Under the pieces are notes generated by a model. It made no database searches and was not told the origin of the DNA. It saw nothing but the letters and a program-made list of their open reading frames with translations. A program made the position numbers and the translations under genes. A DNA stretch of 63,900 nucleotides, filler included, from Craspedostauros australis (Eukaryota): assembly GCA_030167865.1 (NCBI GenBank). It is 15 parts of 15 records of this genome, joined end to end, with 100 filler letters (N's around TTAATTAATTAA, not from the genome) between each part and the next. Parts side by side here need not be neighbours in the genome. Positions count along the whole stretch, not along the records: positions 58,803 to 60,904 come from JALAGF010005487.1; 14 more parts are not named here. One strand, given 5' to 3'. Shown in pieces: positions 2 to 60,904 of the stretch (the stretch's first letter is position 1; every line of letters starts with the position of its first letter).

Positions 2-391
2 TTCTCCAGGAAACAACAAACATCCATCACAACATCAACATACAGCGCGGAATTCAAGGCGATGAGATCGGTGAACGAGGAGACCATTTCACTCAGATAC
101 GCACTCCGATCGCTGGGAGTCCAAGTCAAGTCTTCGGCTATCACATTATGCGACAGCAATGATGTGATCTCAAACAAGACGATCGCAGACAGCCTACTAC
201 AAAAGAAGCGTGTGGCAATATCATTCCACAAAGTGCGCAAGTCTGTGGAAGCCGATATACTGGTTCCAGTATACGTTTCATCAGCACAGAACTTCGCGGA
301 TATGCTCACAAAGGCATTGGCGCGGCCAACACTAACCACTTNCGTCACAGCTCTGTTCTACAGGGGTCATCCTCAAGATCAAGGGGCATGA
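2..391 (+). mobile_element. Ty1/copia pol C-terminus (RNase H domain), 5'-truncated by window edge
   Basis: Frame from base 2 reads FSRKQQTSITTSTYSAEFKAM...LRYALRSLGV...LCDSNDVI...KKRVAISFHKVR...NFADMLTKAL, matching the copia RNase H motifs (ST.EAE, CDN, ADMLTKAL). Confidence 0.9.
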
Positions 392-2973: not shown

Positions 2974-5555
2974 CTTTGAGCGTGCTCGAGTGTGCCTTGA
3001 ATGGATGGCACAATAGCTGAATGTAGTTGTTCTGCTGCACCAGTGTGATGGGTCGAATCGAGTGGCTGTCTGACAGAGCGTCTCGTTGAGTATCGCGAGT
3101 ATTGTGCAGCTCCACAACTCTATTGGTATTATATGTAATGCAATAGGTCGTATATAATATTCGTCTCTGGAGAGCGCAGAATATAGGTAGAGAGTATTGT
3201 CGGCACACTCCGACTGGTTGTACTCTACCGAGTTCTCGCAGGCGTGGTTATCTCCTGAATGTGAAGGCACCGCCAAAGCTGAGTCTGAGGGTGCCTTTGC
3301 CGCGCTTCACGTGACTTCACTTGACTTGGAGTGTGGAAGCACGAGCGGAGCCCCCCAGAGCACTATTATGGCTGCAGCGGCCGACCGCGAGGAATGCGAG
3401 GATCGGTGATGCACTCTGAGAGTGTTGCTGTGTGGGTCCAGACTTGGGCGGCACCTTCAATGGTGATGCTGTGTCGGCAAAGGGGGAGCAAAATACTCTG
3501 GAGAGCAGAGTGAGGCAAAGCAGAGTATGGATCGTTGTCTGTTGGAGGAGGTTTGGACTAGATCGTACTGGCCTGTGGTGTCTGCGATCGGCTCTGGATT
3601 TGTTCCTGATTCCTCCTCTAAATGATGCTGTTGCGCGAGTGGTGTGTGGATGCCACCTTGATTCGTCGATTGCTGGTGACCAGGCACTGCCACCTGCGAG
3701 TTGTTTGGATGGATGGCGATGATGGGTGTCGACAACTGGGTGCTGTGCAACTTCGACTGCGTGTATCTCTTGTCTGCCTCTTGGATGCTGTCGCTGAGTC
3801 ACACCTGAGTTCCGTCCGGCCACCCTCTTCGTTGGCTTGGTACGACTACAACAATAGTGCGTGTTGACATTCATCGGTGTTCGGACTTGGATGCGGTCTC
3901 TCACCTGGCTCGTACTGAAACTGCCGCATGAAGGAACACCAACAACGCACGCCGAATTCGACGGATGTCTTCGGCGAACGAAATCGTGGTGTTTGCTTCT
4001 TCTTCGGAATTATTACGAAGTGTCGCATCTGATGTCTGAACGATAAGAACCAGATTGTTTCAGTCGTTGATATATTGAGGCTATAAATGTACATATCGAG
4101 TCACGTTCATGACTCGTTCGTCTCTCTGCCCAATCATCAATTCGCGAACGATCAGAAAAAGAGGACTGGCGAAACGCGGCGACTCGCGACCAAAAAACAG
4201 CACAACAGTCCCAAGGAGGATGCCCGAAGCCTGAATGCCACAGAGAAGTATCAATGAGTCCCTTGGCGCTGGTGCTGGGGGTTGTTTCATCCACGGAGCT
4301 TGGCACACGAAACTGCAGCTCAGACGACAAAAGTAAGAACGAGCTGGTCGAACGACTATGGTTGTGGGCATGAATGTACTCGTGGAGAAGGTAAAACACA
4401 ACACCGCACAGCAGCCCTGTGGGGCAGAGAAGCAGCAGAGAATCAACCGAAGCAAGGGAAAACCGCCTCAAGTAGATGCAAGAGGCAACTTCTGGAGTCG
4501 CATCATGAGGAGAAGTCGTGGGACGTACATGACACTGAAAAACGCTTCAAAGTTGGCGCAGCGCTCCGCGACCTTGGCATCACCTTGCTGCATCCCTGAT
4601 CACGACGTCTCGTACCCGAGTTTCAGGTGCCACCACTCTTCAAAGGGATGTATGACACTATTCTCCCATCCAAAGATCGTGCTCATCTATTGCGGCTCGG
4701 ACCCACGCTGCGAGTACTGCAGGACATACACTTGCATTTCCGGTCCAGGCCTACGAGTAGCCATGCAGACTCAGCTCTGTCCACATCCGCGAAGGTCTCC
4801 TGTGAAGGGGAGAAGCAGAGGATGCTCTGACATTCAGTTTTGTCTCTGACACTGGAGGTGTTTGCGTGGCTCATAATTTCATAACTGGCGAGGCTGGCGC
4901 GCCCCTATCCCGAGTCACGATCTTAGTCCCGTTAAGGACATCGACTCGATNGATCGTTTTGAGTCGTGTATCTTATCCACGTTTCGTTCTAGATTTACCG
5001 GTTGGCGCCATCGTGCTCTTCATGGCTTTGTTGCCTCCGATTCTTGAGGTGTTTCCCTAACTACTTCAGATGTTCTTCATGTGCTTCCAACTTGCTCGCG
5101 TGCCACACGCGCCAGGGTGTCTTCCGATCGTCTATGTATTGCATCTTTCATGNNNNNNNNNNNNNNNNNNNNNNNNNNNNNNNNNNNNNNNNNNNNNNNN
5201 NNNNNNNNNNNNNNNNNNNNNNNNNNNNNNNNNNNNNNNNNNNNNNNNNNNNNNNNNNNNNNNNNNNNNNNNNNNNNNNNNNNNNNNNNNNNNNNNNNNN
5301 NNNNNNNNNNNNNNNNNNNNNNNNNNNNNNNNNNNNNNNNNNNNTTAATTCGCATCGTCGTTGCATGTCTGCTTTCCTTCATCCTCCAATTTGCTTTCCC
5401 TGTATCTGCTCCACCATCCACGGAGCACTGCACTGCATCAATCGGTCCATACATCCGGAAAATTGACACATACTTCGCGTTCACCTTCGATTGATCCATC
5501 CATCCACCCATTCATACAATCCATCCACCCGCCCACTCTCATCATCATCGTCGCC

Positions 5556-6953: not shown

Positions 6954-7053
6954 NNNNNNNNNNNNNNNNNNNNNNNNNNNNNNNNNNNNNNNNNNNNTTA
7001 ATTAATTAANNNNNNNNNNNNNNNNNNNNNNNNNNNNNNNNNNNNNNNNNNNN
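6954..7053. other. Artificial scaffold-joining spacer (N run + TTAATTAATTAA + N run); first of 14
   Basis: Same 12-mer, with stops in all six frames, at 6998, 9114, 13379, 15631, 23714, 31056, 36023, 37622, 49578, 53656, 56335, 58747, 60949 and 62720, each centred in a run of N. Confidence 0.97.
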
Positions 7054-9069
7054 GGACAGGCAAACCAACTGTAAGCGTCGCTACGAGGCGCCAACGGTGG
7101 ACCAAAGGCCCTCGGCAATGTCCCTGCTGATGGACAGTGTCTTCTGCCGACTTCCGACCCACATGCAGGTGCTCGTCGTGAAGTCTGCGCTTTACTTCCG
7201 CAAACACGGCAAGCCAATCAACGAGGACACGCCCAAGAACCTCAAACNAGCGGAGTACGCAAAGAACCTCCAACTTCCCACCATGTGAAGATCTCACAAG
7301 AGAGCCTGGACCAAAGTGTCCCCANCGTGCAGTGGAAAGGAATACGGACCATGCGACAACAGCTCGTGACAATCAATGACAGACACAACTCGCCGCCAGT
7401 CGGAGATCATCATACATATCAAGCCCCGCGACTGTAGGGGGAGACGCGCGCAGCTGTGGAGAGAAGACCCAGGTGTGCACGCCTGGAGGTACTACAAGAG
7501 TTGGCGCCAAGTGGAACCCACCCGACTGTCCACCACTTTCTTTGCAGGGCAAGAGCAACAAGCAGTAGCCAAGGCTACATCGTTTGACTCAGGGGTGGAC
7601 AGCGACATTGTACATGAATCCNGATGGGTGGTGACCCAACAACNCCAACAGACGTTCCATGCTCACGGGGCAACAATGGCCTCACCAATCAAGGCATTCC
7701 AGATGGTCGACGCGGTGNCAGTATATGAATCTCCAACAGGCGATGTGATCCTCATCAAGGCAAAATATGTGGCTCTGGATAAGCACCCACATCAGATGGA
7801 ATCATTGTTTAAGACACATCACATGCGCGTGCCTGGACTGAATGTATACAATTGCCTCATCCAACACCAGGGGCAACAGCGCATTGCATCAGGTGACACC
7901 AGCATCCCACGGGCCAACCATGGTGGCAACACCCTGCGCATCCCCATTTGGAAATTCACAGCTCATGAGCTAAAACTCAATAATCATGTCACGATATGCN
8001 ACCGACACCAGCGCCTTNGGCGNAATAACCAGGGAATCCATTTCACCGACATGATCAAACACTTCCCACACCAGGTTGTCGAGAAGACAATGGCGGCATC
8101 CACCCAACTGGCGGACAGACCAATCGAGACAGAGTCACGACTCATCCCATGGCAGTACCGAACACAATGAGCTGGAGTGCTCCAGCCGCAATGAATCCAA
8201 GGCAGAGTCAATANNNNNNNNNNNNNNNNNNNNNNNNNNNNNNNNNNNNNNNNNNNNNNNNNNTCCAGCCGCAATGAATCCAAGGCAGAGTCAATACGGA
8301 CCCCTTCTTTTCCACAGTGCAATCAATTTGGCATTCCAAGTGCTTCCGACTCTTTGTCCACAGCAAACCAAAATTCATCTGGGCGAAGCCGCTCCAAAGA
8401 GAGGCAATGGCGCCAGGGGCGCTCATGGACTTCATCCTCAATGTCGACGCACNNNNNNNNNNNNNNNNNNNNNNNNNNNNNNNNNNNNNNNNNNNNNNNN
8501 NNNNNNNNNNNNNNNNNNNNNNNNNNNNNNNNNNNNNNNNNNNNNNNNNNNNNNNNNNNNNNNNNNAACAGAGCGGAACGCATGATCGGCGACATCAAGT
8601 GGCATGCTTATCAGTTGATATGGGCGGCATCCGCGCCACTCGAATTCTGATGTTTGCATTGCAGCATGCCATCGACGTGTGGGACTAGATGGACAAGGGC
8701 AGCATCCAGTGGAGGACACCAATTGAACTTGTCCATAGCAACATGCCCGACATTTCCATGTTCCGATCCACTTTCTTCCGTCCTGTGTTGTTCTTNNGGC
8801 CAATGACAAAGTTCCCTGAGCATCCATTCAAACCNGGCTATATCCTGGGCATCGCGTGAATTCACGGGGATCCATTCACTTACCATATCTGGTTGCCACA
8901 AGACGAGGATATCAAGTGGGGCACAGTCCTCATGTGCAACATTGCCAAGCCGCGTATTCTGGAATACACAGACACTCTGCACATCAGCAATGGAGACATA
9001 CAACGAATCGCAAGGCTCAACCTCATTGACGCAACCACAAACAGCGCTTCGGGTGGCAGGGCATGAGCA
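7054..9069 (+). pseudogene. Degenerate copia family E fragment: gag end, protease, integrase
   Basis: Colinear paralogue of 58803-60904 (DSVFCRLP, DSGVDSDIVHES, YESPTGDVILIKA, QVVEKTMAASTQLADRPI). Integrase-like QNRAERMIGDIK near 8570. Frameshifts and stops present. Confidence 0.85.
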
Positions 9070-23769: not shown

Positions 23770-25935
23770 TCTGGCTAACGTCGCCCGCATACACCTCAGA
23801 GCGCTTTGGTTGTCGGACATCACCTCCGCCTGTGGCACACGCATCCTGCCCGACATCCTGCGACGATCCAGGCTGCCACCAGGCACCACCACGTGGCCCA
23901 AGACGGGGACCGTAACCCGGACAGCGTGGGAAGCTTGGGAACATGTGCTGGCAACTCTGGTGGCCGCAGACAGACCAGGTTGGCATGTGCAGGCGACCCT
24001 CGGTCTGTGGTACCACGCGCCCTCACGCCGCGCTGCTCAACTCCCAGACGGAACGATCAGGCTACCAGGCCAGGCGAGAGCCCAAGACACCAACGGCCCC
24101 CTCCCAACGCATGTGGTCGACAGATCTGCTCGGCGATCCGGAGCGGCCACCACAGCATCCGGGGGCATTCAAGCCCGCGCCAACCCGACCTCCATTCGTG
24201 CTTGGCTACACCACAAAGGCCCCGCAGCCATCGCCATGCTACCAACGCTGCAGATCCAAGGCGACGTCCACCAAATCGTTCAGTCGATCACGACCGGCAC
24301 ATGCGCAGCCTGCAGCGATGCATCAGCGAAGCACAGCAAAGGCGCAGCCGCAGCAGTCATCCAAAGTGCGGTCGGAGACGACACGCACCAGATCGTCGCC
24401 ACATCAGCGGTTCCCGAAGGGTCGCACCCGACAGACTCCAACCGGGCCGAGCTTGCTGGAGTGCTCATGTCCATATGGGTGGTGACTTCCATTGCAGAGT
24501 GGGCAGGTGTGACTGGCGGCGCCACCATCGCGTGCGACAACGACAGGGCGCTCAGGTCTGTGACCACTTCCCAGTGGCCCGACCCCAGGCGGCCCGACCA
24601 CGATCTCAGAGCAGAAATCGTCCGACTGCTGCGCAAAACAGTGGTGCAATTCCGGCAGCAGGAAGTGAAAGGTCACGCAGATGACTCCGGCCAGCCTCTC
24701 ACGGAATGGGAAACCATGAACGTCGCCGCCGACGCACACGCAGGCCGACAATGGGAGAGCTCGAGCCAGACCGGATGGAGCAATGATATTCCCCCTGTAC
24801 CCACTGGAGGATGGACCTTGCTCGCAGGCGCCACGCCCATCACCGACCTCGACTACTGGACAGTGCACAATGCCCTTGATGGCACCGGCATCCAACTCAA
24901 GTGGTGTCGGCGCTGGGGACACGCGCACCCCTCTGAGGTGGACTGGATGCCCATGCGTACCAACTCCCGACGTTGGCAAGGCGGCAGGCGACGCACACTG
25001 CTCAAGCTTATGGCTGGTGCAGGCGCTAGCGGCAAGAACATGCAGCGGCGACAGCAGGAGGCCTCTGACACATGCCCCAGATGTGGCCGGCCGGAAGACA
25101 ACTCTCACGTTGTCATGTGCCCCAGTGCATCCAGTCAGGCCATTTGGTCCAGGACGATACTCAAGGTGCGGTCAATCGTGCGACCGCCAACCACGCCACC
25201 GCTCATCGCTCAATTGCTATGTACGGCCATCACCCGCATCTCCACAGGAGGCATTCCCCCGTCAGGCATTCGCGACTCTCCCACCAAGAGTATCCAGCAA
25301 CAGCAAGCGAAAGTGGGGTGGAATGCCATAATGTGGGGCGGGTGGGCCACGGCCTGGCGAGAGCATGCCCCTCCTGCGGATCAGCGCCGCCGCAGACGAC
25401 TGCCCCGACAACTCCGCGACTGGCAAGCCAGTGTGACAAGTCTGCTGTGGCACGCGATCCTGGAGCAGTGGAAAGACCGCAACGAGGTTAAAGCCTCGCA
25501 GCTCGCTGACGGTATGGTGGAGCTGCTCGAACAGCAGGCCCTCCAAGTCCGGTCAGTGGCGCCAGCACTTGTACCGCCCCCGCTGCGGCCCCTCTGGGAA
25601 CAACCACCTCCCATACAGCAAACCCGCGCCCTTGCGGAATGGGTGCAGGCCATGCACAACGCGCTCGGCCACAACAGCCCCCCTCTCCCGAAAGTGCTCT
25701 CCAACTGGATGCTCAACGTCCGGCGAAAGGCGACCTCCGCTTCCGACTCCGCCCACGCCACACCACGCCAATCTCCCACCGATACCTGAAGTGTTCCTCT
25801 TGGCAACCACGGCTGCCACACGACTTCACTCCGTTCCCGCAATGTGCTACCATGTTGAATAAACGAGGCGGAATAAAAGCGCCATCGGCGCATGACGTAA
25901 CCGTTATAATCTGTGTGTTATATATGTAGGTAGAT
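23770..25935 (+). mobile_element. 3' part of a second Ambal-like non-LTR retrotransposon (RNase H, CCHC finger, 3' UTR)
   Basis: ORF to 25789 with CSDASA, DSNRAELAG, ACDND, VKGHADD, MNVAADAHA, CPRCGRPEDNSHVVMC; same domain order as 9670-13334. Confidence 0.85.
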
Positions 25936-26157
25936 CAGCTTTGGCGGTCTGTTGTCGATTTCCTCTGATGCTTCCGGGTATTCCTCCTTCATCTGCAAGG
26001 CCATTTCTGGATTGGATGGTGTTGCATTGAAGTTGTCAAATATCATCGGGCAAGAGTCAATCTGTGTTTGCAATGTGGACTTGTGCTCCAGATATCCCCA
26101 TACTTTGATGGCTCTCTCAAGGCGTCCTTTACAAGATGATGCAGCAAAATGTGAAAG

Positions 26158-26964
26158 AGTTAGGATTCGTGCGTAGGCGTCGCGAATCGGTGGAGAATGC
26201 CTTGTGAATCTGCCGGCTTCGGGATAGCCGTGTAATGCAGTTCAAGAGAGGTGTACTGATTGAAGAGTTATAACTTGTAACGATGAGAAGTAGAGTGCTT
26301 TGTAGCTAATCCTTGTCTGTTTATTATGAGTTAGCTTATTGGTGTTAGTAGGGTAAAGAAACGATGCCACACAACTTGGCGAGACCCTGCACTGATGCAC
26401 TTGATTCAGTGTAACAGAATAGACAATCAATACAGTGCTTTGCTCTCTGCACATGTAGTTACACTGCAGTGTAGGTCATGACAATCAGTGATGACGATCA
26501 TGAAGCAGTGGCTGTGGCTGAAGCTGACCCTCAGATTCCATTGCTTGAGTTGAAGCAAGTTGGATACGCATGTTGGGACCACGGTGGTAGTGTGGTGGTC
26601 ATCAGCATGATGGAATCNNNNNNNNNNNNNNNNNNNNNNNNNNNNNNNNNNNNNNNNNNNNNNNNNNTGAGTTGAAGCAAGTTGGATACGCATGTTGGGA
26701 CCACGGTGGTAGTGTGGTGGTCATCAGCATGATGGAATCGAGGTATGTTGTAGTAAGGAGGATCTGAAGAGCATATAGTTCCCAAGTGGGTGTGAGTCAG
26801 GTCGGTCAGGTTTGAGTCATGATGGATTCGTGAATGGAGGAGAGAAAGGAGGAGAAAAGATTTGGTGGTCGATCAAGTNGGAAGATTTCGCGCCAAAACA
26901 AGAATTTCTCCCATCGGGTTGATACCGTGTTCGGTAATAGTCTGTCCCTCATTGAATCTCAACT
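26158..26964 (-). mobile_element. Family B solo LTR with GAAAG target-site duplication
   Basis: GAAAG(26153-26157)-AGTTAGG...CTCAACT-GAAAG(26965-26969). Confidence 0.92.
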
Positions 26965-27609
26965 GAAAGTGAAGAAGTTGCAAATGCAAAATCAAAACGT
27001 CCAAGTTGAACAACTCAGTTCATCATCCCGATGAGCTGCTGGAACTGGTGATGTTAGTCAGGTGTTCGTAGTTTGGAGCCATCCGTTTCCAGATGATTTT
27101 TGTTCTGCGTGGGACCATGTTGGTTGTGTATTGGTCCCTGTTGTCGTTCCAACTTGTCCAATGCATTTGCAATGTATTTGCTGCAGGCAGGCTTGCAGCA
27201 GATACTGTGATAACGCTTGATCCACAGCCACTGTTGGACCTCAAGAAGCCAATCGGCCACATGAATGATGTCATTGTGCTTCCGCTGACGCTGCATGAGA
27301 GTGCCAGCATGCACCCTGCGGCATTGGCTGCAGTGGGTTGCCGTCAGTGTGTCCACATGGCATGTCATGATGCTCAAAATATCAAGCCATCCCAACAATA
27401 CGGCGTTTGACATCGACATGTCGTCATCAGGCAACCATCCACCTGCTGACATCACCTGGAACAGCATGAACGACCAAGAGCAGCTACAAGTCTTCAACAT
27501 CGCCCCTGGACATCATGCTTGTTGCATTCCGTAGTGGCAATCCAGACTGCGGCATTCATATCTCATGGATAGCAGCGAACATGAGGTGTGGACCCTGGGC
27601 AATGTGGCA

Positions 27610-31111: not shown

Positions 31112-34100
31112 CTCCAGCGCCTTGTTCGTTGAGAACAGATTCACCCACATCTTGGGCGCGAACTTCACGTTGTTCAGTCTGATGGTGCGCTGTGTGTTGT
31201 CGCGTTGCTTCACTCGGAGATAGATGGATCCCATCTTTGGTGAGTTGAGTTGCGTGTTGTCGCCGACCTTCACAAAGGACTGGATGTGGCGGATGTTGAA
31301 CATCCCCTTATCCGAATTCACAATGTGGCATGAGGCTCCACTGTCGGCGAGCCATGTGTGTTCATTTGGTGTGTCGGTGCGGTGGTCGGATGCACGGAAG
31401 CGCGTGCGATCCACGACCATGATTGCCAACTCGTCGTCATCGGAGGAGTCGTCGTCGTAGGATGACTCGCCCGTGCTGGAATCGTCCCAATCGATTGGAG
31501 GGCGCGTTGGTTCTGCTTGCTGTGGCGGCTCCGGTCTTGCCTGTTGTGGTGGCTCAGGTCGTCTTTCCTGCGGTCGGTGGTAAAGAAGTGCCGCCATACA
31601 TCCTCCGAGGATGAAGTGCCGCTCCATGATGCTCAGTGGTGGTTGGCCGTGACGCTCGAGGATCCTGTTGAGAATCATGCTGTTTGCCAGGATCTCCTCG
31701 ATTGACAGAAGCTCTGCCATGATGAACATTGCTGACACTCGTCCGACGAATGCCATCTGGATGCGTCGATTGTTTGGGAACAGGTTGCGGGCCCCGCAGA
31801 AGATGGCGTTTGCGATCAGCTCGCGTTGTCTGATCTCGGCCGTGAATGTTGGGTACGGCGCAGTGTCATGCCTGCCGTGGGCCCCTCGTTGGTTGAAGAA
31901 GTCCGTGGGCCCAAAGCGTAGGCCGGTTGGGAAGATCACGTCTTCGTGGTGGTTCATGACTCGTNNNNNNNNNNNNNNNNNNNNNNNNNNNNNNNNNNNN
32001 NNNNNNNNNNNNNNTCCGAATTCACAATGTGGCATGAGGCTCCACTGTCGGCGAGCCATGTGTGTTCATCGGGTGTGTCGGTGTGGTGGTCGGATGCACG
32101 GAAGCGCGTGCGATCCACGACCATGATTGCCAACTCGTCGTCGTCGGAGGACTCGTCGTCGTTGGATGAGTCGCTCGTGCTGCAATCGCCCCAATCGATT
32201 GGAGGGCGCATTGGTGCTGGTTGCTGTGGCGGCTCCGGTCTTGCCTGTCGTGGTGGCTCAGGTCGCCTCTCCTGTGGTCGGTGGTGAAGGAGTGCCGCCA
32301 TGCATCCTCCGAGGATGAAGTGCCGCTCCATGATGCTCAGTGGTGGTTGGCCGTGACGCTCGAGGATTCTGTTGAGAATCATGCTGTTTGCCAGGATCTC
32401 CTCAATTGACAGAAGCTCTGCCATGATGAACATTGCCGACACTCGTCCGACGAATGCCATCTGGATGCGTCGATTGTTAGGGAACAGGTTGCGGGCCCCG
32501 CAGAAGATGGCGTTACTGATGATTTCGCGTTGTCTGATCTCGGCCGTGAATGTTGGGTACGGCGCAGTGTCATGCCTGCCGTGTGCCCCTCGTTGGTTGA
32601 AGAAGTCCGTGGGCCCAAAGCGTAGGCCGGTTGGGAAGATCACGTCTTCGTGGTGGTTCATGACTCGTTGACCTTCTGGTCTGGGAGGACGGAATCTGTT
32701 CCGGACGTATAGTGGACGAGTTGCATCGCTGTCGTCATCTCCGTCATCTTGAGCAATCTCTTCTTCGGCGGAGCCAGCAGCTGACGCTTCTTCGAAGAGA
32801 TTGTCGTCCAGGAGCATGTCTTGCTCAATCGGGGGCTCCCCGGCTTCCTCCATGGCGAGGATATCGATATCCTCCTCAGGATCTTCTTCTCGGTTGCTGT
32901 TGCTCGGCAAGTCGTGCGTGTTGAGGCAGTAATCGAAATCGAGATCAAAACGAGGCTTGTTGTTGAGCGTCACCTCGTGGATGATCGGTCCGTCGTTGAG
33001 CCACGCTGGGATGCTCACGTCGTCGTGGACCTCGTCCGTTCCTGGGAAGTGTTGAAAGGTATCAAAGAATGAATCATCGACGGCGTAGGCAGTGTGAGTT
33101 TGTGTGGGTGTGTCGAGCATGGTCATCACCATCTCGAACCTGTCATCGTTGCCGTCTTGCGCCGTGCTTCCTTGCTCTTCCTGCTTTCTCTTTTCGTTGA
33201 ACTTTTTCTTCCTGCAGTCGGCTTCTCGGTGTCCTGGGATGCCACAGTANNNNNNNNNNNNNNNNNNNNNNNNNNNNCGACCTCTTCCTCTGTTGCCGCG
33301 GTTGCCTTGATTGCCGCGCTGATCTCCTCTTCTGTTGCCTCTGTTGTTGTAGCCTCCTCGTCGGCCGTTGTTGGATTGATGGTTGTTGTTGTTGTCGGCC
33401 GCTTGCTTCCTGTCTGGACAATTCGCAGACCGATGGCCGTACTTTCCACAGTTGTGGCAGTTACCCTTGAATCCGCCTGTCGCAGCCATCGCCGCGTCGT
33501 CGCGCTTGCTGCCAGTATCCGCGAAGTCGTCCACGTACGCCTTTCCANNNNNNNNNNNNNNNNNNNNNNNNNNNNNNNNNNNNNNNNNNNNNNNNNNGCT
33601 TCCTTGCTCTTCCTGCTTTCTCTTTTCGTTGAACTTTTTCTTCCTGCAGTCGGCTTCTCGGTGTCCTGGGATGCCACAGTAGTGACACTTCCCACTGAAG
33701 CCGCTGCCACGACCTCTTCCTCTGTTGCCGCGGTTGCCTTGATTGCCGCGCTGATCTCCTCTTCTGTTGCCTCTGTTGTTGTAGCCTCCTCGTCGGCCGT
33801 TGTTGGATTGATGGTTGTTGTTGTTGTCGGCCGCTTGCTTNCTGTCTGGACAATTCGCAGACCGATGGCCGTACTTTCCNCAGTTGTGGCAGTTNCCCTT
33901 GAATCCGCCTGTCGCAGCCATCGCCGCGTCGTCGCGCTTGCTGCCAGTATCCGCGAAGTCGTCCACGTACGCCTTTCCACCTTGGAGTTTGGAGTATCGG
34001 TAGTTCAGCACGTTTCGGATGGCTTCGATCGTCACCTTCTCTGGACCCATCTGTAGTTGGTATTCGAAGTTGCTCACTTCGTCGTCGTAGTCTTTGCTGA

Positions 34101-35820
34101 GGCTGCTGAGTACTTGCATGATCAGCTCTCTCTCGCTGATCTCGTATTTCACATCTTGGAGGCGAGTGCGGAGCAGCTCAAGCCGTGTGACGTAGATGTC
34201 GGGATCCGTATCCCTCGCCATGCGTTCCGTGTTGAATTGGCGCTTCAGCCGCAGCACCGTGGATGCATCGGTCGGCTGGTACTTCTCCTTCAGCATCTTC
34301 CATGCTGCCGCTGGGTTCCCCTCGCGGTGCTGCTCGTCGCAGCATTGGTTGATCAGTTGGATCGCTTGCTTTCCAGTGCCTTGCTCTGCATCCATCATCA
34401 GGATCAGATCGCTGAAGCAGTCCAGCGCCAGTTCGCGCGTCTCTTCGAGGGCCTCCCTCTTCTCTTCATCACTCTCTCTCTCGATGTCTTCTTTCGTCGG
34501 GATGGTCTTCTCTCCCATCATGATGTCCTTGTATCGCTGCGTACGCGCGTACGCTTTTGCCTGCGACTCCCACGCGTTGTAGTCTTCCTTCTTCCCGCTG
34601 AAGAGTGGGGCCTTGCGCCTCTTGTACGTGTCCTTCGTCATCTTCTTTCTCGTTGTTGTCTGCTTGCTCGTGTCTCGTGTGCCGCCTGTTGATTGGCTCT
34701 CTTCTTTCTCTTCTTCTCTCTCTGACTCCTCGTTGTCGTTGGATGCGAGGGGATCGATGCCGCTGTCTCTCTCTGACGCGCTACCCCTGCCTTCTGTTTC
34801 CGTCTGCTGTACTTCTGTCTCGTACGCTTCCACTTTGAACACTCGCTGTGATGGAGTCGATGTGGGTTGTCCTGTTGATGCCGATGTCGGTCTCGGCTGG
34901 TCTCTCTGCCGCGTCTCTGTGCCGGCTCTTCGTGCAGCTTGCTCTGCTTCTGTCTCGATGATGGCTCCTTGCTGAGCGCTTGGTTGTTGGATGGGCGCAC
35001 CCGCNNNNNNNNNNNNNNNNNNNNNNNNNNNNNNNNNNNNNNNNNNNNNNNNNNAGCATTGGTTGATCAGCTGGATCGCCTGCTTTCCAGTGCCTTGCTC
35101 TGCATCCATCATCAGGATCAGATCGCTGAAGCAGTCCATCGCCAGTTCGCGCGTCTCTTCGAGGGCCTCCCTCTTCTCTTCGTCACTTTCTCTCTCGATG
35201 TCTTCCTTGGTTGGGACGATCTTCTCTCCCATCATGATATCCTTGNATCGCTGNGTACGCGCGTACGCCTTGGCTTGCGATTCCCACGCGTTATAGTCTT
35301 CCTTCTTGCCACTGAAGGATGGGGCCTTGCGCCTCTTGTAGGTTTCCTTCGTCATCTTCTTTCTTGTTGTTGTCTGCTTCCTCGTGCCTCGTGTGCTGCC
35401 TGTGGATTGGCTCTCTTCTCTCTCTTCTTCTCTTTCTGACTCTTTGTTGTCGTTGGATGCGAGGGGATCGATGCCGCTGTCTCTCTCTGACGCGCTACCC
35501 CTGCCTTCTGTTTCCGTCTGCTGTACTTCTGTCTCNNNNNNNNNNNNNNNNNNNNNNNNNNNNNNNNNNNNNNNNNNNNNNNNNNNNNNNNNNNNNNNNN
35601 NNNNNNNNNNNNNNNNNNNNNNNNNNNNNNNNNNNNNNNNNNNNNNNNNNNNNNNNNNNNNNNNNNNNNNNNNNNNNNNNNNNNNNNNNNNNCTTGGTTG
35701 TTGGATGGGCGCACCCGCTCCTTCTCGCGTGAGGTTCAGAGTCTCGTCCTCGTCTCCCTCGGTCTCGTCCTCGATCACTGGTGTGAGAGGGAATGCAGTC
35801 TCTTCGGTCTCTTCGCTCAT
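31112..35820 (-). mobile_element. Copia family D gag-protease (two zinc knuckles, inserted domain, aspartic protease), with gap-associated duplications
   Basis: APLFSGKKEDYNAWE, AWKMLKEKY, CHNCGKYGHRSANC, CHYCGIPGHREADC, WLADSGASCHI, VKVGD...NVKFAPKMWVNLFS. Confidence 0.92.
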
Positions 35821-40967: not shown

Positions 40968-42138
40968 TGTTGGAAAGTTCCGTAGACGGATACCTTGCAA
41001 TTGTGGAAGACAGTGATGGCTGTTATGATGACAATTGCTATTTCATGACATTGTTCCTCTGATGCTCTTGGTGTCTCTCTCTGACTATGAGTTGGCACAC
41101 TAGATACTCTCTTGCCATTACTCGTATTCTCTCTCTCTCGATATTTCGCGTCCACAACAAGCAATATTTCGTACTCGATATGTGCTCTGTATTCGACACA
41201 TNNNNNNNNNNNNNNNNNNNNNNNNNNNNNNNNNNNNNNNNNNNNNNNNNNNNNNNNNNNNNNNNNNNNNNNNNNNNNNNNNNNNNNNNNNNNNNNNNNT
41301 GGCCATTGAATCTTTGCCTTCTTGATCTGATGTGGAGACAGCTGCCAACGTGGTGACATGATGACATCCTGTCAATGTCAGCTGTTGTCTTCCATGGTCC
41401 TTCAGATTCCAGATTCCATTGATGATGCAGTGGTCTGGCGAGAGTGTTGTCATTTGAGGTTTAGTTGGGAAACATATCAAGCCTGACTCGATATCACATG
41501 TTTTGTTGATGGATGGACGGACGATGTTCCTTNNNNNNNNNNNNNNNNNNNNNNNNNNNNNNNNNNNNNNNNNNNNNNNNNNAATATTTCGTACTCGATA
41601 TGTGCTCTGTATTCGACACATACTCAGCCGTCTTGTCCTCTACTGGCCCACTACTCTGCGAGTATTCGCCAATGTTATGTCCAAACTCCTCCTTGTATAT
41701 CTATGATCTTGATATTTCTTGGCCATTGAATCTTTGCCTTCTTGATCTGATGTGGAGACAGCTGCCAACGTGGTGACATGATGACATCCTGTCAATGTCA
41801 GCTGTTGTCTTCCATGGTCCTTCAGATTCCAGATTCCATTGATGATGCAGTGGTCTGGCGAGAGTGTTGTCATTTGAGGTTTAGTTGGGAAACATATCAA
41901 GCCTGACTCGATATCACATGTTTTGTTGATGGATGGACGGACGATGTTCCTTATGCTCTCATAAATGGTTGTTCACAAATTTCCCCAAAATGTTGGTGGT
42001 TTTTGTGTGTCCGAATTCGTGATGTGATTTCGATCAATCACAGTTCACTATCAACACGAATGTAGTTGCGCCGTCTGTGCATATAGTATAAGAGAACAAT
42101 GAGTGAGCAATGCACATACACATATGCACATTCCAACA
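40968..42138 (-). mobile_element. 5' LTR of the family D element (family A-related LTR), inflated by gap duplication
   Basis: TGTTGGAAAGTTCCG...ACATTCCAACA lies directly upstream of the minus-strand gag, which links the family A LTR type to family D internal sequence. Confidence 0.85.
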
Positions 42139-44403: not shown

Positions 44404-47063
44404 ATGAGGATCACTCTCAGAGCCAAGGTCACTGGCAGATGCGGGCCTCGTCGGTCCAACGCACCTCGCAAACAGCATGACTACATCGTGGGACACACGA
44501 TCAAGGTTCTTCCCAAGCACAACTGGATCGTCCATTGGGAATCCTTGGGTGTCGTATGCAAACACAGTTCCCAAACCCTCATTTGCCTGGAAGGCAATGA
44601 AAGTCCACTTCCTGACACCAAGGTCAAAGAATACATTCAAACCATCTTTGTTGGAAAAGGAGTTGCAGCGTTGGATGCTTTTGCAAAGAGCCACAGATTC
44701 CTCCTGCCACCAGAGGCAATCACTGGACCAGCGGATGTGCCTGCAGTCAGCCAAGACTTGGGTGTTGGGACAAACTCTCCATCCAGCAACATTCTCCCAA
44801 GCAACAGTCCGGCTGCGACTTCTCTACCACTGAGCTCTCCTCCCATCAACATTCACCTGACCAACATTCCAGCCACGACTTCCCAACCAACAAACTCTTC
44901 GCGCATGCTCCAACCAACAAAGTCAGTATTGATGGCGGATCCGAAGAGCCGGAGGATGACACATCTATGGATTGCAACATTGACAACAACTTTGACAACA
45001 ATATGTTGAATTATGCAATTGAGATGGAGGAACAAACCCTCCACTACAAACCACATCATGCAGAGAAGGCCACACTGATCTCCGACAACACCTCCATCAG
45101 CATGGGATCTCAAGCCGACATAATGACATGGAAGGTTGTACCAGATGACCACATTGGCAGCCCCAAAGATGGATCTTTGCGGGAGTGGGTGGGGGTTGCA
45201 AACTTTGACTTCACCAACCTAATCGTCGCGGGCAGGGGCAGGGACAGCAGGTACCAACGTATCAACATGCTGCATCTCCTACAGCACATGTGGCCTGGCG
45301 ACTCGAAGGCCCAGGTTGACAAGCTCCATCAAAGGATCATCATGAGGCAACTTCCCACAAGAATATCGGAGGACCAGATTGACAATCACCTCATATCTCA
45401 TCACAAGTTTTGGGTGTTCTTTGGATTGCTCCTTCTGGGCACTATCAAAGGCACATCCTGCCTGTGGGGCGACAGAGACACTGAAGGATTCAAACAGCCA
45501 ATGGACGTCGCCGACCACATGAAGAATTATTGGTTTCGTGCCATCTGAGAATCACTGATCCCACACATCTTCGTGGATGCATCCAAGCAATTCTCGGATC
45601 CATGGTGGCAAATTCAACCAGGTGTGGATGCTTTCAATGCGAAGCAGGCGGAGATCATGTGCGCGAGCACACTGAAGGTGATGGATGAATCCATGAGTGC
45701 CTTCAAGACACAAACAACCAAGAATGGGAACCTTCCTCACCTATCCTTCGTCCGTCGCAAACCTGAGCCGCTGGGCGTGGAATTCAAGACCGTCGCCGAT
45801 GGAGAGACAGGGATCATGCTGTTCTTGGAGATCCAACGGGGCAAGGAGGGCATGGAGGGTGTGGCCTTCCTCGACAGGGTGAAGGGCAAGAACGCTGCAT
45901 GCACCCTTCGCATGGCAGCAGCAACCAATGTCTGCACCGATCCTTCGAAATCTCTGGATGATCCGCAGTTCAACCAGGGCAAGAGCATCTTCCTGGGAGA
46001 CTCGTGGTTCGCGTCTGTGGAGGCCACCAAGGCGCTTGAAACAGAGCTGGGTGCGAAGTTCATTGGCATCGTGAAGACGGCTCATCGGTTGTACCCCAAA
46101 GTCTTCCTGGAGACCACAATGAAGGCGTGGCCATCCGGAAGCCAGCTGCTGATGGAAAGCGAGCGCGGTGGCCACAAGTACTATGCACTGGGGTACAAGT
46201 ACTGCAAGGCCAAGGTACTCTGTTTCGTCTTTTCCGCGGGAGCTGGGCATGCAAGCCGTGGGGCGCCGTATTTGTCGAAGTGGATCTTGGACGATGGGTG
46301 CCCCATGACAAAGAAAGTGGATCGGCCGAGTGTCGCTTCGAAGTACTTCGAAAGCTGCAACAAGGTTGATGTCCACAACCAGGCTCGACAGGACATCCTT
46401 GGTCTGGAGAGAACTTGGCCCACACGCGACGGATACTTCAGGCTTGTCGCGACTCTCTTTGGGATAACCGTTGTGGATGCATGGAGGGCATACCGATGCC
46501 ACTTGGCAGGCAAGCATCGACACAAGAATGTGCCTCTCATGGATTTCGTGAACATGATGGTCAAAGACATGCTCCACAACAACGAAGCCCCTGATCCACC
46601 AAGCTCATTTGCCAGGATGAGAAGCNACCAGCCATCGGAAGTGCAATGTGGTGGCAATGGTGGCTCCTTGTCTTTGTTGACAACCGACAGTCCAGCCCAT
46701 GCGACAACACAGGTGGCCCGTGCGACAACACAGGTGGCTGAGTGGCCCCGAGCAGACTTGATCAATGGCCACCACTTGGTAAAGCACCCAGGTAGAGTCC
46801 GGAACGGGAAGATTGACCATACGAAGCAGGGGATCGCCAGGTTCATGACGAGGGGGAAACGGAGCAGATGCTGTGTGTGCACGAACTCGTCAAGGTACCA
46901 TTGCCTGAACTGTCGAATGGGGTCTCCAGGCCAAACTGTTTGGTGCTGCGAAATGAAGAAGTACGACGGAATATTTCGACGATGTTTCGAAATCCATGCA
47001 GAGAAACACGCAGGTTCAAGGTCGCGTAGTTCCACACATCCAGACACCATGACAGATAGTTAA
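44404..47063 (+). pseudogene. piggyBac-like (DDE_Tnp_1_7-type) transposase with a frameshift near 44900-45000 and in-frame TGA at 45546-45548
   Basis: DESM, RKPEPLGVEFKTVAD, GDSWFASV, IGIVKT, KVDVHN (three catalytic Asp positions intact) and C-terminal Cys/His-rich domain. ORFs 44967-45548 and 45573-47063 share a frame. Confidence 0.85.
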
Positions 47064-50105: not shown

Positions 50106-51598
50106 CGCATCCACTTTCCACGTGCAACGACGCAACGATCAGACGCGCGGGGCGACACATGGACAGAAAATTGCATGCCGGCGCAGGTCCGTCGCACACT
50201 GTTGGAGCACATCGATAATCGCGTTTGTTGATGCATCACGACCAACCAGTTTGCGAATGACATTTATGCTTGTGGTGGAAACAAACGCATGCTTCCAGAC
50301 GAGAATCATTTTACCCTGTCCTCCAGACCTGTAATGCTTTGCTGAAACGAACACGAACGTCAGATGTTGCGCCATTGCTTTGACGCAAATAGCGCACACC
50401 ACTACTATGCTATCATGGAGAAGTGCAATGCAATTGTTCCACCGTATTCGTTGCAAAGTACTATATGCAAGTACATCAACATTACTGGTGGTTACACTTT
50501 GATTGGGAATCGGCACTCGCTGACCACACAATCTTGCTTCACAGGGGAGGTGCACTAAGAACACCGCGAAACACAGCTCACAGGAATCTCCTCGTTGCCT
50601 CCGAAATCGAAACAAAGTCTCATAAAACAAATCGGTCATCAGATTGAAAACGCCAACAACCAGCAATCAACTGACAACCAGCAATCAACTGACAACCAGC
50701 AGTTGCAAGGAGACGACTCGCCCCTCTGAGGTCGCAACGAAGAGAAACAAACCAAAAAGGTACGCGCACATCACGAAGAAAGGGGGAGGGAAGCTTGGCT
50801 GATGGATGAGGAAGATCGGACAGCACACACGCACACGCGCACGAACACGCTCACCTACACAACGGAGCATGCAGTCATTTGCAAAACCGAGGTCAAGACG
50901 CACACGAACTGCGGACAGCGTCGCAGATGATGCAGCAGCACTGATGAAACGGCAGCACGCACCAACGCTGGAGATGCAAGATACCTGCGAGTGTGAGCAC
51001 CATACCTACATTCCAGTCAATCTTCGCGGCTCGTTATGCAGCGGTGCTGCGGCCCCTGTCGGTGGCGCCCATCTCGTTCGGGATGCCTCGTATCATGTCA
51101 ATGTCCAACGCGCGCCACTCCACATCCAGGCGCTCAAACTCCGCACCTCCTCCAAGCCGAATTAACCCATGCTCTGCTCTTTTCCATCACCATCATTCCT
51201 TCTCTTCCCTTCCCTTCGCACGCGCAACTGATGCCTCCTGTGTGCGCAATCTTGACGTGATCGAATCGTCACGATGTTGTGTCGATTGATGGATATCGTT
51301 GATCTCCATTGATTGTCGTCGTTGTCGTTGCTCGCCACCGCGTCTCGCGTCATTTCACACACCAACAATTATGCTCACACAAATGAACACATCGCTACGA
51401 CACTCACAATCGTTGCCGTTCTTCGTGGGACGGAACTCGCTGCCAAACTCACACATGATGCTTGCATTGCCAATCCCAACCCATACGTGATCCGTACCAA
51501 CCCATTCTCGTGGCACGTACGCATACATGCACGCAAACAAAATGCCCCCGCCATACAGAACCAACAGTCTCACGACAGCACCGAAGACAACAGCAAAG

Positions 51599-53611
51599 AT
51601 GCTCTGCACCAACACAGCCTTCGCGGCTTTTATCGCTGTCGCCAACACGGCAACAACCCACGCTATCCTCCGCGGCAACAGGATTCCTGTGGATCCAACC
51701 GAGGAACTCCACATAATGATGATGAAGACCCGCATCCTCAAGGACACCAACGGCGACGTGAAAACCAACAAGAACAACAAGAACAACCAAGTGCCACCCT
51801 CTGAAAACCCAACTGATCCAGAAACGACCCCGCCAACCGCGTCGCCGACCTCCCAGCCCACGCTCCTACCATCTGCCAAACCATCAGCTGCCCCAATTGT
51901 CTTCGATTCCACCATCTCCGTTGTCTGCAAGCCGGATGGCGCTACCGATCTCACAATGGAAGAGAGAAGCACCAAGACCATCATCTGTAACTCTGCCAAG
52001 CCATCATGCCGCGAAGCCATCACCGCCGTCAAGGAATCCGAGCAGCTGCAGAACTTCTTCGGATGTGCAGGAGACCTCGGCGAAGGAGCTGCACGCAAGC
52101 TCTTCAGCAAGTACGCATCCAGCGATATCCTTGCTGGCCAATTGGCCATGGTCGCTACCACCAATCCAGTCCTGGTCACCGAACGACCAGATGAAATGAA
52201 CGCAGCGTGCGCGGCCATCGCGGCGATGCAATCGCCTGCCGTCGCAGACCCATGCTGCCAAGGATCCTCGGGATGCACCTCAGTCACCGGTTCCGCCTCC
52301 AACTCTCCTCCATTCATGACCGTCGCTATCACTGCATGCACCGGTGACAGCGCCTGCAAGGACATGGGCCCCAACCCACTCATTCTCGATTCCTCCTGCA
52401 CTGGCGCGAGTGCATGCGAGTTGATGAACGAAAATGAAATCAACCCGTCCATCACAGGAGTCACCTTCGTCGGTGAGATGGCATGCACCACTCCTCAATC
52501 TTGTGAGGGAGTGGGACGTCGTTCTCATGGTGATGTCACCATCCAGACCGGTGCATGCGTTGGGCCAGACGCATGCAAGGCAGCTGGACGCCGTGTCGTG
52601 CAGAAGGCCCTCTCCAACAACCGCAGCCACATCGACATCGGGGCGAATGCGTGCGTCGGCAGCAATGCCTGCAAAGATGCCCATTCCACTGTCAACTATG
52701 GTACTGCTGGCAAGCGTGCAGGCAGCCTGACCATTGGTGCTGGTGGTTGCGGCGCCGATGGGTCATGCGAGAAGATGGGCTTCAATGACAAGATGACAAC
52801 CGACCTCGTCGTCCCTCCTGGTGGATGCAGCAGTGTCAAAGGCTGCAGGGGATGCATGACGAAGACAGAGTGCGGCTCCGACGAAGTCTACATCATCAGC
52901 GATGTTGATGGGGCCTGCCCAAAGGGAGGCAATGACAGCAACATGAATCCCACTGGTGACAAGATGGACGAGTATTGCATTGGCAAGGACACCTTGCCCA
53001 CAGACTGTCCGACCTTTTCTCCCACCCCTTTCCCAACACCTGTCACGTCACCTCCCACATCAGCACCCACAGCTCCAACTGCTTCACCGACTTCGGCACC
53101 GACCAGTGCCCCGACAAGCGCCCCAACTTCAGCACCGACCAGTGCCCCAACTTCAGCACCAACAAGCGCTCCGACGTCAGCACCGACCAGTGCCCCGACA
53201 AGCGCCCCAACTTCAGCACCAACAAGCGCTCCGACGCCAGCACCGACGTCAGCACCGACGTCAGCACCGACCAGTGCCCCGACCAGTGCCCCGACAAGCG
53301 CCCCAACTTCAGCACCAACAAGCGCTCCGACGTCAGCACCGACCTCAGCACCGACCGGTGCCCCGACCAGCGCCCCAACTTCAGCACCAACAAGCGCTCC
53401 GACGTCAGCACCGACCTCGGCACCGACCAGTGCCCCGACAAGCGCCCCAACTTCAGCACCGACGAGCACTCCGACTTCGGCGCCAACGAGCTCTCCAACA
53501 AGCGCCCCGACTTCGGCTCCAACTTCAGCTCCAACATCGGCTCCTACCTCGGCACCGACGAGCGCACCAAGCGCGCCAACATCCGCGCCAACCAGCGCCC
53601 CAACTGCCCTG
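51599..53611 (+). CDS. Secreted/cell-surface mucin-like protein: signal peptide, C-x5-C repeat domain, long (PTSA)n stalk; 3'-truncated
   Basis: MLCTNTAFAAFIAVANTATTHAILRG; repeats ACTGDSAC, SCTGASAC, ACVGPDAC, ACVGSNAC; more than 40 PTSA-type units from about 53050 with varied synonymous codons. Confidence 0.85.
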
Positions 53612-53711
53612 NNNNNNNNNNNNNNNNNNNNNNNNNNNNNNNNNNNNNNNNNNNNTTAATTAATTAANNNNNNNNNNNNNNNNNNNNNNNNNNNNNNNNN
53701 NNNNNNNNNNN

Positions 53712-58802: not shown

Positions 58803-60904
58803 ATCATTGCGCAATTCTTCCGCAATATACGCGATGAACGATACATGAGCGAGGTGTCGCGTCTCCGAAAGCAGAAGCTCACCTTCGCAGAGATCCGCAA
58901 GGAACTCATGGAACATGATCGTGTGCTGACCAACATCGAAGCACATCAATCTCCTCGGCGCAACCGCCGATTCCAAACCAAGCAGGGCGGACGCAACGAC
59001 CGCAAGCGACCACATGATGGCCAATCCGGCGACCGCAAATCCGCGCCCGCATTTCGGCTGTCGGACAGCGTATTCAGACGCCTCCCAGCCTGCCAACAGG
59101 CGCTCCTTGTGGAGGCCACGAGGCACTACCGCAAGAACGGGAAGAACATCGACGATGAGACCCTCAAGAAACTCAAGCCAGCGGAGTTCGCACAGAATCT
59201 CCAGCTGCCGCTCACACGCAGAGCAGCCAAGCGCGACCGGCCCCACGGGACCCCGACTCGCGACGGCAAGAAACGCGGATCATTCGGCGACAGCTCTTGA
59301 CAACCAACGGCGGGCACACTTCGCCGTCAGTCTGAGGTTGCCATCCGTATCAAGCCCCGCGACTGTAGNNNNNNNNNNNNNNNNNNNNNNNNNNNNNNNN
59401 NNNNNNNNNNNNNNNNNNNNNNNNNNNNNNNNNNNNNNNNNNNNNNNNNNNNNNNNNNNNNNNNNNNNNNNNNNNNNNNNNNNNATGGACGGTAGCCAGG
59501 GCTACATCATATTGGACTCAGGGGCGGACGGCGACATCGTGCATGAATCCGGATGGGTGGTGACCCGACAACACAAGCAGACTTTCCAAGCCCGCGGGGC
59601 GACAATGGAATCACACATCGAGACCTTCCAGATGGTCGACGCGGTGGCAGCATATGAATCACCCACAGGGGATGTGGTTCTGATCAAGGCAAACTACGTG
59701 GCGCTCGACGAGCACCCAAGGCAGACNNNNNNNNNNNNNNNNNNNNNNNNNNNNNNNNNNNNNNNNNNNNNNNNNNNNNNNNNNNNNNNNNNNNNNNNNN
59801 NNNNNCAGCGCATCGCGTCAGGGGGGATCAGTATACCACTGGCCAATCATGACGGCAACACTCTGCGCATACCCATACGAAAACCGACGGCTCATGAGCT
59901 CGATAACATTACTAAGCATATCACGATATGCGACAGACACCAACGACTTCGACGTAACAACCAACGGGTTGACTTCGGCNNNNNNNNNNNNNNNNNNNNN
60001 NNNNNNNNNNNNNNNNNNNNNNNNNNNNNTACAGCTGCAGAGGGACGGCCCAAGCGTGCACGCATTGTGGAACCCCGAGTGCCGCCGTCAAGCATAACCC
60101 ACCCGCATGTCGAACACTGTCTTCGCAGGGCAAGAGTGATGGACGGTAGCCAGGGCTACATCATATTGGACTCAGGGGCGGACGGCGACATCGTGCATGC
60201 ATCCGGAATGGGTGGTGACCCGAAAACACAAGCAGACTTTCCAAGCCCGCGGGGCGACAATGGAATCACAAATCGAGACCTTCCAGATGGTCGACGCGGT
60301 GGCAGCATATGAATCACCCACAGGGGATGTGGTTCTGATCAAGGCAAACTACGTGGCGCTCGACGAGCACCCAAGGCAGACAGAATCGTTGATGAATACT
60401 CATCATATGCGCGCGTCCGGACTGAACGTCTACGATCGCCTACTTCAACACCAAGGGCAACAGCGCATTGCGTCAGGGGGGATCAGTATACCACTGGCCA
60501 ATCATGACGGCAACACTCTGCGCATACCCATACGAAAACCAACGGCTCACGAGCTCGATAACATTACTAAGCATATCACGATATGCGACAGACACCAACG
60601 ACTTCGACGTAACAACCAACGGGTTGACTTCGGCGAAGTGTTCAAGCATCTCCCACAGCAGGTGGTTGAGAAGACCATGGCGGCATCAACCCAGCTGGCG
60701 GACCGACCGATCGAGGCCGAGTCACGACTCATCCCACGGCAGTACCGTACGCAGCGCGCAGGGGTATTGCAGCCACACCGGCTACACGGAAGAGTTGACA
60801 CCGATCCATTCTTTTCCACCATCCAGTCGATCCGACACTACAAATGCTTCCAGCTGTTCATACACAGCGAATCCAAGCTGATTTGGACCAAGCCACTCCG
60901 ACGG
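58803..60904 (+). mobile_element. Copia family E: gag C-terminus, TGA, protease and start of integrase
   Basis: gag ORF ends at 59300; IILDSGADGDIV protease; GRVDTDPFFSTIQSIRHYKCFQLF integrase start. 59485-59979 is repeated from 60139. Confidence 0.88.

Follow-up and report, generated by a model that had tools for sequence, protein, structure and literature searches.

The stretch of DNA analysed here (the window) comprises 63.9 kb of Craspedostauros australis sequence from assembly GCA_030167865.1 and holds two diverged copies, designated E and P, of a single family of Ty1/copia-type long terminal repeat (LTR) retrotransposon. In each copy a TGA closes a gag-like open reading frame (ORF) approximately 72 codons 5' of the DSG motif of the protease (PR), and in each the stop is followed by CARYYA, the hexanucleotide of leaky stops of the tobacco mosaic virus (TMV) type. 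In-frame readthrough of this UGA is the leading hypothesis for the production of Pol, and our confidence in it falls a little short of even; recoding of either kind at the gag UGA, by readthrough or by frameshift, is probable. The site is a good candidate for recoding, and the window poses this question rather than answering it.

The gag stop and its context in two copies

An earlier note on this DNA had placed a stop with a CARYYA context at 59298-59306 in copy E and at 7367-7375 in copy P, and both positions are exact to the base. The context is also kept in both copies as claimed, the lone difference between them (C/T) lying within the tolerance of the motif. Copies E and P share 69% nucleotide identity in gag (over 312 nucleotides, nt) and 76–82% in PR, and given this homology in gag the shared stop counts as a single ancestral event, kept in two lineages and not acquired independently in each. 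A self-BLAST of the window and pattern searches revealed the junction in copies E and P only, with no third copy; a match to the junction pattern with two mismatches, at 21579, proved to be unrelated sequence and was discarded.

Beyond the stop, the gag-frame peptides are QPTAGTLRRQSEVAIRIKPRDC in copy E and QSMTDTTRRQSEIIIHIKPRDC in copy P, as the earlier note had given them, with 14 of 22 residues identical by hand count. The synonymous codon pairs that it had listed there (CGT/CGC and TCT/TCG) are real, a third being ATC/ATA. The gag frame is the only one open in both copies over the 22 post-stop codons; the +1 frame contains a TGA in copy P (7376-78), and the −1 frame a TAG common to both copies plus a TGA in copy E. 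The last 21 nt before a run of unread bases (N) in copy E, 59348-59368, are identical to 7417-7437 of copy P and end in the TAG that closes the −1 frame. Since this block is identical at the nucleotide level, part of the likeness between the post-stop peptides is plain nucleotide conservation. When 7376-7396 of copy P is set against 59307-59327 of copy E, most of the changes in P prove to be C>T or G>A, in some cases at CpG, a pattern that fits deamination-type decay of an old copy.

PR is under purifying selection between E and P, with differences distributed 6/6/20 and 10/11/39 over the three codon positions and ratios of non-synonymous to synonymous change (dN/dS) of 0.20 and 0.17, respectively, compared with values above 1.4 in wrong frames. 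For gag the signal is weaker, the ratio being 0.55 in the gag frame versus 0.86 and 1.59 in the other frames. As PR was selected during the divergence of E and P and the same TGA was kept in both, it follows that replicating elements carried the shared stop. Pol is without a plausible start codon of its own: the sole ATG 5' of DSG in copy E stands 10 codons ahead of the catalytic D and has no counterpart in copy P. A stop present in replicating lineages, together with a protease unable to start alone, suggests that some bypass of the UGA is needed. From these observations we infer such a bypass, with readthrough as its mode and with Pol in frame in the intact family.

In such a scheme most ribosomes would stop at the conserved UGA, upstream of the protease active site, and release Gag, whilst on a few of them a near-cognate tRNA would decode the UGA, favoured by UGA-CAA-YCA, a context in which termination is weak. 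A further contribution may come, in copy E, from an 8-bp hairpin that begins 6 nt past the stop. Ribosomes that read through would go on in the same frame, across a poorly conserved linker, into PR, integrase (IN) and reverse transcriptase (RT), giving a low ratio of Gag-Pol to Gag. The copy E hairpin has a predicted stability of −10.4 kcal/mol (z −3.9, equalled by 1 of 200 shuffles), and it is spaced from the stop as a stimulator of either kind of recoding would be. CARYYA is described as stimulating readthrough not only of UAG but also of UGA (PMC3542737, in a passage citing Skuzeski 1991), and the reporter results summarized in PMC4132726 give approximately 15% readthrough with this context, UGA being about equal to UAG.

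Element class and relatives

The ORF past the junction carries a DSG(A/V)D motif and across 97% of its length shares 50% identity with P0001, a protein of 1322 amino acids (aa) that is the closest relative of both copies. P0001 contains DSG, then D..D..35..E-type integrase motifs (read by eye) and then RVT_2 at residues 828-1030, and on copy P tblastn with P0001 located PR followed by IN. PR before IN on copy P, together with RVT_2 past the integrase-like region of P0001, gives the order PR-IN-RT, which is that of Ty1/copia and bears out the assignment of the earlier note to the copia type. RVT_2 is present in P0001 and in other relatives; the contigs of E and P themselves are without RT, each being approximately 2.1 kb long with ends that fall within gag and IN, so that the LTRs lie beyond them. 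Fragments of the RT/ribonuclease H (RNase H) end belonging to the E clade are found on other contigs of the window, at 2-358 (+), 25921-26160 (−) and 26964-27188 (−), and are 38–57% identical to P0001. The match of the copy E protease to Pfam RVP is weak (E-value 0.15), and a profile built from relatives scores 60.8 bits.

When the first 460 residues of P0001 were used as query, 37 more relatives were obtained at E ≤ 1e-76, with 35–46% identity over 61–98% of the query. Single gag-pol ORFs of 1738–1887 aa were present in 20 of the 34 relatives that were aligned. Four relatives from three subgroups (P0009, P0014, P0015 and P0022) are pol-only ORFs whose starts lie no more than a few residues from a common linker motif, V-x-hydrophobic-K-[DE]-x-x-D, which lies 50–75 residues before the protease active site and through which the relatives of 1740–1800 aa read straight; split and fused forms of gag-pol may coexist in the E/P clade at the same boundary. 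The start of P0001 at VIVLDSG was considered as a sign of a nearby break and dropped, as it may be a mere contig edge. Given the single ORF of those 20 relatives, an in-frame stop is one point mutation away from the usual layout of the clade. A fuller proposal would be that this microalgal copia family turned a single gag-pol ORF into a Gag/Gag-Pol system by means of UGA-CAA-YCA and a hairpin 6 nt downstream, that it is the first retrotransposon shown to use CARYYA, and that the four pol-only relatives may do likewise. We put this forward tentatively and regard it as, on balance, doubtful.

The copy E ORF upstream of the stop is a putative gag, so called solely for where it lies and for its basic composition. 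No Pfam family matches it (E ≤ 1), it is without Retrotran_gag or a CCHC knuckle, and a search with this ORF plus the post-stop peptide gave no matches among 1.84 billion representative proteins and noise-level scores only (0.76) in a protein atlas. Matches to Retrotran_gag_2 and zf-CCHC do occur in other copia families of the window. One such family, at 31957-35820 (−), has Retrotran_gag_2 and a CCHC knuckle in a single stop-free frame of 1288 codons, open across several N runs, and this single-ORF layout contrasts with that of the E family. The PR-IN fragment of copy E gave no matches among proteins of near its length. Among metagenome contigs, a search with one alignment returned 513 pattern matches and no relatives, and P0001 as query returned two loci (L001 and L002) that match at the RNase H end only, with 30–49% identity, and were not used. 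No matches were found in viral contigs with P0001 or with a second alignment, in genome contigs with that second alignment, or in either genome or viral contigs with a conserved 20-mer.

Frame of the protease and competing explanations

The window is made up of approximately 15 short contigs joined by 14 linkers, each of 44 N, TTAATTAATTAA and 44 N (for example 6954-7053), and a census of its N runs distinguishes three kinds: these contig joins, runs of exactly 50 N, and runs of other lengths (sized runs). Runs of exactly 50 N, 13 in all (for example 8214-8263), are placeholders between truly overlapping contigs, and for nine of them the two flanks share sequence within 250 nt. Sized runs could be compared with the stretch that they hide in a near-identical overlapping contig, and lengths agreed in all four same-locus checks (28, 157, 98 and 79 nt). 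Against more distant paralogues the lengths were equal in three cases (69, 101 and 64 nt), and against other paralogues they were unequal (235 versus 216, 200 versus 214 and 120 versus 117). In other ORFs the sole stop-free frame was the same on both flanks of sized runs in approximately 7 of 10 cases, as read by eye from a table. As sized runs are length-exact where they can be checked, ORFs and frames can be traced across them, and not across 50-N runs.

Copy E is a scaffold of contig A (58803-59979), 50 N and contig B (60030-60904), of which 59485-59979 matches 60139-60634 with 98% identity and one indel in 495 nt. Contig B has a 1-nt frame break near 60204-60206, where the alignment to P0001 passes from residues 2-16 (60160-60204) to residues 17-249 (60206-60904). 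Copy P occupies the contig 7054-9069, in which single N occur throughout, marking it as low-quality sequence, and its damage includes a premature gag stop at 7286 and a stop at 8168 besides the scattered N.

The earlier note had proposed checking that gag, the TGA and DSG are in one frame. This was so in copy P, where the distance from the TGA (7367) to the GAC of DSG (7586) is 219 nt and falls within one ORF of 266 codons, but not in copy E at face value, where the distance (59298 to 59515) is 217 nt and DSG is in the +1 frame, taking the 116 N at their written length. The caveat attached to that note, of a gap in one copy and indels in the other, calls for amendment: copy P as sequenced keeps a single frame between the stop and DSG, and copy E at the written N length does not. 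The stretch of copy P homologous to the 116-N run is 120 nt long, with 4 nt more than the run in a G/C-rich stretch, GGGGGAGACGCG (7437-7448), and copy P is 2 nt shorter than E within the GYIILD codons just 5' of DSG. If Pol is in frame in the intact family, the masked linker of copy E must carry a net 1-nt lesion or error in length.

A number of observations weigh against in-frame readthrough. In copy E, the better-preserved of the two, DSG falls in the +1 frame, whilst stops interrupt the gag frame beyond the N run. As sized runs were exact in all four same-locus checks, this geometry counts against an in-frame Pol without being decisive, because contigs A and B already differ by an indel in 495 nt and because the readable sequence of E ends where the G run and GC-rich stretch of P begin. 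The in-frame state of copy P goes together with its 2-nt shortfall at the active site, and by homology to E the frame that precedes PR is the −1 frame of P, so that continuity of gag and PR in copy P could be accidental; all three frames of the P linker are nearly stop-free. Nor does the linker itself point to a frame. Differences between E and P in the pre-PR linker fall 11/12/6 by codon position, with dN/dS of 1.35, 0.43 and 0.54, and pick no frame, and a profile of the relatives' linker motif ranks gag-frame peptides best, yet with negative bit scores. Profiles of the relatives' gag-PR linker run against six frames of the window gave nothing significant at the junction. The frame in which copy E reads ...CLRRARVMDGSQGYIILDSG, again the −1 frame of P by homology, resembles the RRGR...VIDxGTE of relatives with a score (7.3 bits) that is not significant alone.

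The coding continuity that the earlier note had read into the post-stop peptides is without statistical support: the 22 codons show 15 differences between E and P, divided 5/5/5 by codon position; synonymous change affects 3 codons and non-synonymous change 8, dN/dS for the gag, −1 and +1 frames is 0.57, 0.55 and 1.19, respectively, and there is no resolvable coding signature. TGACARYYA is not enriched in the window, occurring 8 times on the two strands compared with 6.07 expected (27 of 100 shuffles reach 8), and its weight is one of position only: what counts is that the motif ends an ORF upstream of a protease in two homologous copies. The copy E hairpin is absent from copy P (0 kcal/mol), where its 5' arm has four transitions (one C>T and three G>A), and no conserved RNA structure was found at the junction, z-scores for the 71 nt after the stop being −0.8 in E and +1.1 in P. 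The consensus fold of the pre-PR linker reaches only −9.75 kcal/mol, and Rfam returned no relevant family at the junction, with one chance-level match to a long non-coding RNA (E-value 3.8). In the account of Tca2, a Candida albicans copia element, its junction alone directed no readthrough in Saccharomyces cerevisiae (PMC2194720). The earlier claim that the family makes Pol by readthrough is supported in part, as regards the stop, its context, the copia class and the lack of a separate Pol start, whilst the two copies disagree on whether Pol is in frame.

The face-value geometry of copy E, with 217 nt between stop and DSG and a single +1-frame ORF (58930..60312) spanning the stop, the N run and PR, would be explained by a programmed +1 frameshift on or immediately ahead of the gag stop, in which UCU or UCG occupies the P site and a slowly decoded UGA-C the A site; the copy E hairpin, 6 nt past the stop, could serve as a stimulator, and CARYYA would be a coincidence. 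Such a shift accords with N runs that are exact where testable and with a frame kept across most sized runs in other ORFs, it requires lesions in the decayed copy P only and none in E, and TCN-TGA-C is kept in both copies, UGA before C being described as a weak terminator (PMC10085805). Set against this, the +1 frame of copy P is closed by a TGA 9 nt past the gag stop (7376) and by two upstream stops (7128 and 7179), and it is the frame with the worst post-stop dN/dS. The heptamers CUU-AGG-C, GCG-AGU-U, CUU-UGA-C and UCC-UGA-U, of the Ty1, Ty3 and RF2/antizyme types, do not occur in the last 370 nt of E gag or in the P gag fragment, which have bare TCT-TGA-C and TCG-TGA-C only, and the stretch of 122 codons that stays open in the +1 frame ahead of the stop is just mildly unusual (codon-shuffle P = 0.07). 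The full six-base CARYYA at the stop would moreover be due to chance, at about 1 in 512 per random hexamer, and the relatives are in-frame single ORFs. We consider a +1 shift unlikely on the whole, but the most serious competitor to readthrough.

Both copies are damaged, copy P by stops at 7286 and 8168 and scattered N and contig B of copy E by its frame break near 60205, and the two disagree on the frame relation of gag and PR. They could accordingly represent a defective or non-autonomous lineage mobilized in trans, or one in which Pol is obtained by an internal promoter or internal initiation, by reinitiation or by splicing, with no ribosomal recoding at this site. Precedents for parts of this exist, since the text on Tca2 reports a cryptic promoter within the junction, which alone gave no readthrough (PMC2194720), and elsewhere among copia families non-autonomous sub-families are described as co-evolving with autonomous counterparts (PMC9744471). 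However, the dN/dS of 0.17–0.20 in PR argues that the lineages encoded their own protease, a protease needs about 20 residues or more 5' of DSG, so that the sole ATG is too close in E as well as missing in P, and Tca2 Pol was in the same account still judged a product of the gag-pol RNA (PMC2194720). Splicing out of the stop was considered on the E and P sequences by eye, with no splice model, and rejected, no donor 5' of the TGA giving an in-frame join. An absence of recoding is in our estimation unlikely.

Pol might also lie in the −1 frame, since the E frame with RRAR...GYIILDSG corresponds by nucleotide homology to the −1 frame of P gag, from which P departs by its 2-nt shortfall only. The TAG in the shared 21-nt block, 67 nt past the gag stop, nevertheless closes this frame in both copies (with the extra TGA in E), so a shift upstream of the stop cannot reach PR and a plain −1 frameshift is excluded; there is no X_XXY_YYZ heptamer in the 3' region of gag, and the N-run length of E does not yield −1. 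Expression through the −1 frame in any form is very improbable. A variant code in which TGA is a sense codon in this organism can be practically dismissed: nothing specific favours it beyond a frame that is open if TGA is read through, long ORFs elsewhere in the window extend over 1238 and 1288 codons without a stop when the standard code is applied, and copy P has a further TGA inside gag where E has CGC.

Features of the window and comparison with known systems

Features of the two copies and examples of sized N runs are collected in the table below.

Table. Positions, in window coordinates, of the junction features of copies E and P and of sized N runs
Feature	Position	Strand	Remarks
Copy E gag-like ORF fragment	58806..59297	+	164 codons; 5' end cut by contig linker; open in gag frame alone
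Copy E gag stop and hexanucleotide	TGA 59298-59300, CAA 59301-03, CCA 59304-06	+	After TCT (Ser)
Copy E post-stop stretch	59301..59368	+	22 gag-frame codons (QPTAG...IKPRDC)
Copy E predicted hairpin	59307..59327	+	8-bp stem (59307-14 / 59320-27), 5-nt loop; starts 6 nt past UGA
Copy E 116-N run over gag-PR linker	59369..59484		~109 nt of content readable in overlapping contig, 60030-60138
Copy E protease N-terminal part (contig A)	59485..59726	+	DSG = GAC TCA GGG, 59515-59523
Copy E contig B	60030..60904	+	Pre-PR linker (60030-60138), PR, integrase start (VDTD)
Copy P gag-like fragment	7055..7366	+	Premature TGA 7286-7288, CGC in E
Copy P gag stop and hexanucleotide	TGA 7367-69, CAA 7370-72, TCA 7373-75	+	After TCG (Ser)
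Copy P 266-codon ORF	7370..8167	+	Gag frame; TGA, linker, PR; DSG 7586-7594
Copy P PR	7583-8212		tblastn of P0001
Copy P integrase region	8284..9027	+	Several frames, N runs; tblastn, P0001 residues 211-459
Sized N runs, examples	33250-33277, 35536-35692, 41202-41299, 59727-59805		

Elsewhere in the window, 44616-47063 (+) contains ORFs of 310 and 504 codons in the same frame, split by a TGA at 45546-45548 (ATC TGA GAA TCA). The second of these matches the piggyBac-type family DDE_Tnp_1_7 from profile position 99 on only, so this stop may lie inside the transposase. Unrelated to the junction are 1336-3306 (−) and 51491-53656 (+), where one ORF has a C-terminal DUF6824 (E-value 4e-12) and another, of 722 codons, is PT-repeat-rich.

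Retroelements must make far more Gag than Pol. Copia elements mostly use a single ORF plus splicing or degradation, and a stop between gag and pol is rare; to our knowledge the mechanism by which Tca2 bypasses its own is still unclear. The Ser codon followed by UGA at the E/P stop resembles the shift site of antizyme. If readthrough is the mode, this textbook leaky context would provide a simple test of CARYYA on stramenopile ribosomes and could illustrate the conversion of a copia lineage from a single ORF to recoding. Should the +1 reading of copy E prove correct, the site would represent a +1 shift dependent on a stop codon, which is likewise uncommon among retrotransposons. Annotation would benefit as well, because automated gene calling breaks such elements up into separate 'gag' and 'pol-only' ORFs, as is seen among the relatives described above.

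The six bases that follow the E/P stop are those of the TMV-type (type I) viral signal, stop plus CAR-YYA, which according to the passages on this class works with UGA and UAG (PMC3542737, PMC4132726). Natural type I cases are mostly UAG codons of plant RNA viruses, unlike the E/P site, which is a UGA in a retrotransposon known here from sequence alone. In the literature searched, a limited library, no report of a retrotransposon using a CARYYA context was found. Diatom copia elements of the CoDi groups are described with the order PR-IN-RT-RH (RH, RNase H; Maumus et al. 2009, PMC2806351), and PR-IN-RT is likewise the order in E/P. In the fission yeast elements Tj1, Tosmo1-3 and Tcry1, gag and pol are separated by an in-frame TGA whose immediate surroundings are conserved; this is interpreted as programmed readthrough, and the stop of Tj1 is described as essential for transposition (PMC10085805). 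These elements differ from E/P in belonging to another superfamily, Ty3/gypsy, with the order PR-RT-IN, and in their context, GAA-TGA-CT (PMC10085805).

Among copia-type elements, Ty1 has pol in the +1 frame (PMC2194720), as has copy E at face value, but E/P are unlike Ty1 in having neither the CUU-AGG-C nor the GCG-AGU-U heptamer and in the closed +1 frame of copy P. Tca2 resembles the E/P family more closely, being a copia-type element with a UGA between gag and pol, and in the published description its Pol comes from the gag-pol RNA, so that the stop must be bypassed (PMC2194720). Its junction is nevertheless described as an 8-nt purine-rich spacer and a pseudoknot, with no CARYYA in that description (PMC3441728), whereas E/P have a CAA-YCA context and a simple hairpin in one copy, with the in-frame relation seen in copy P only. 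VdLTRE5 of Verticillium dahliae, also Ty1/copia, has GAG and POL split by UGA, a layout called very rare in its description; it is reported there without CARYYA (PMC3441728), which the E/P family has in both copies. A gag-UGA-pol arrangement is therefore already known in copia elements, though rare (Tca2 and VdLTRE5), and CARYYA would, if in-frame readthrough is the right reading of the E/P junction, be a new type of signal among them.

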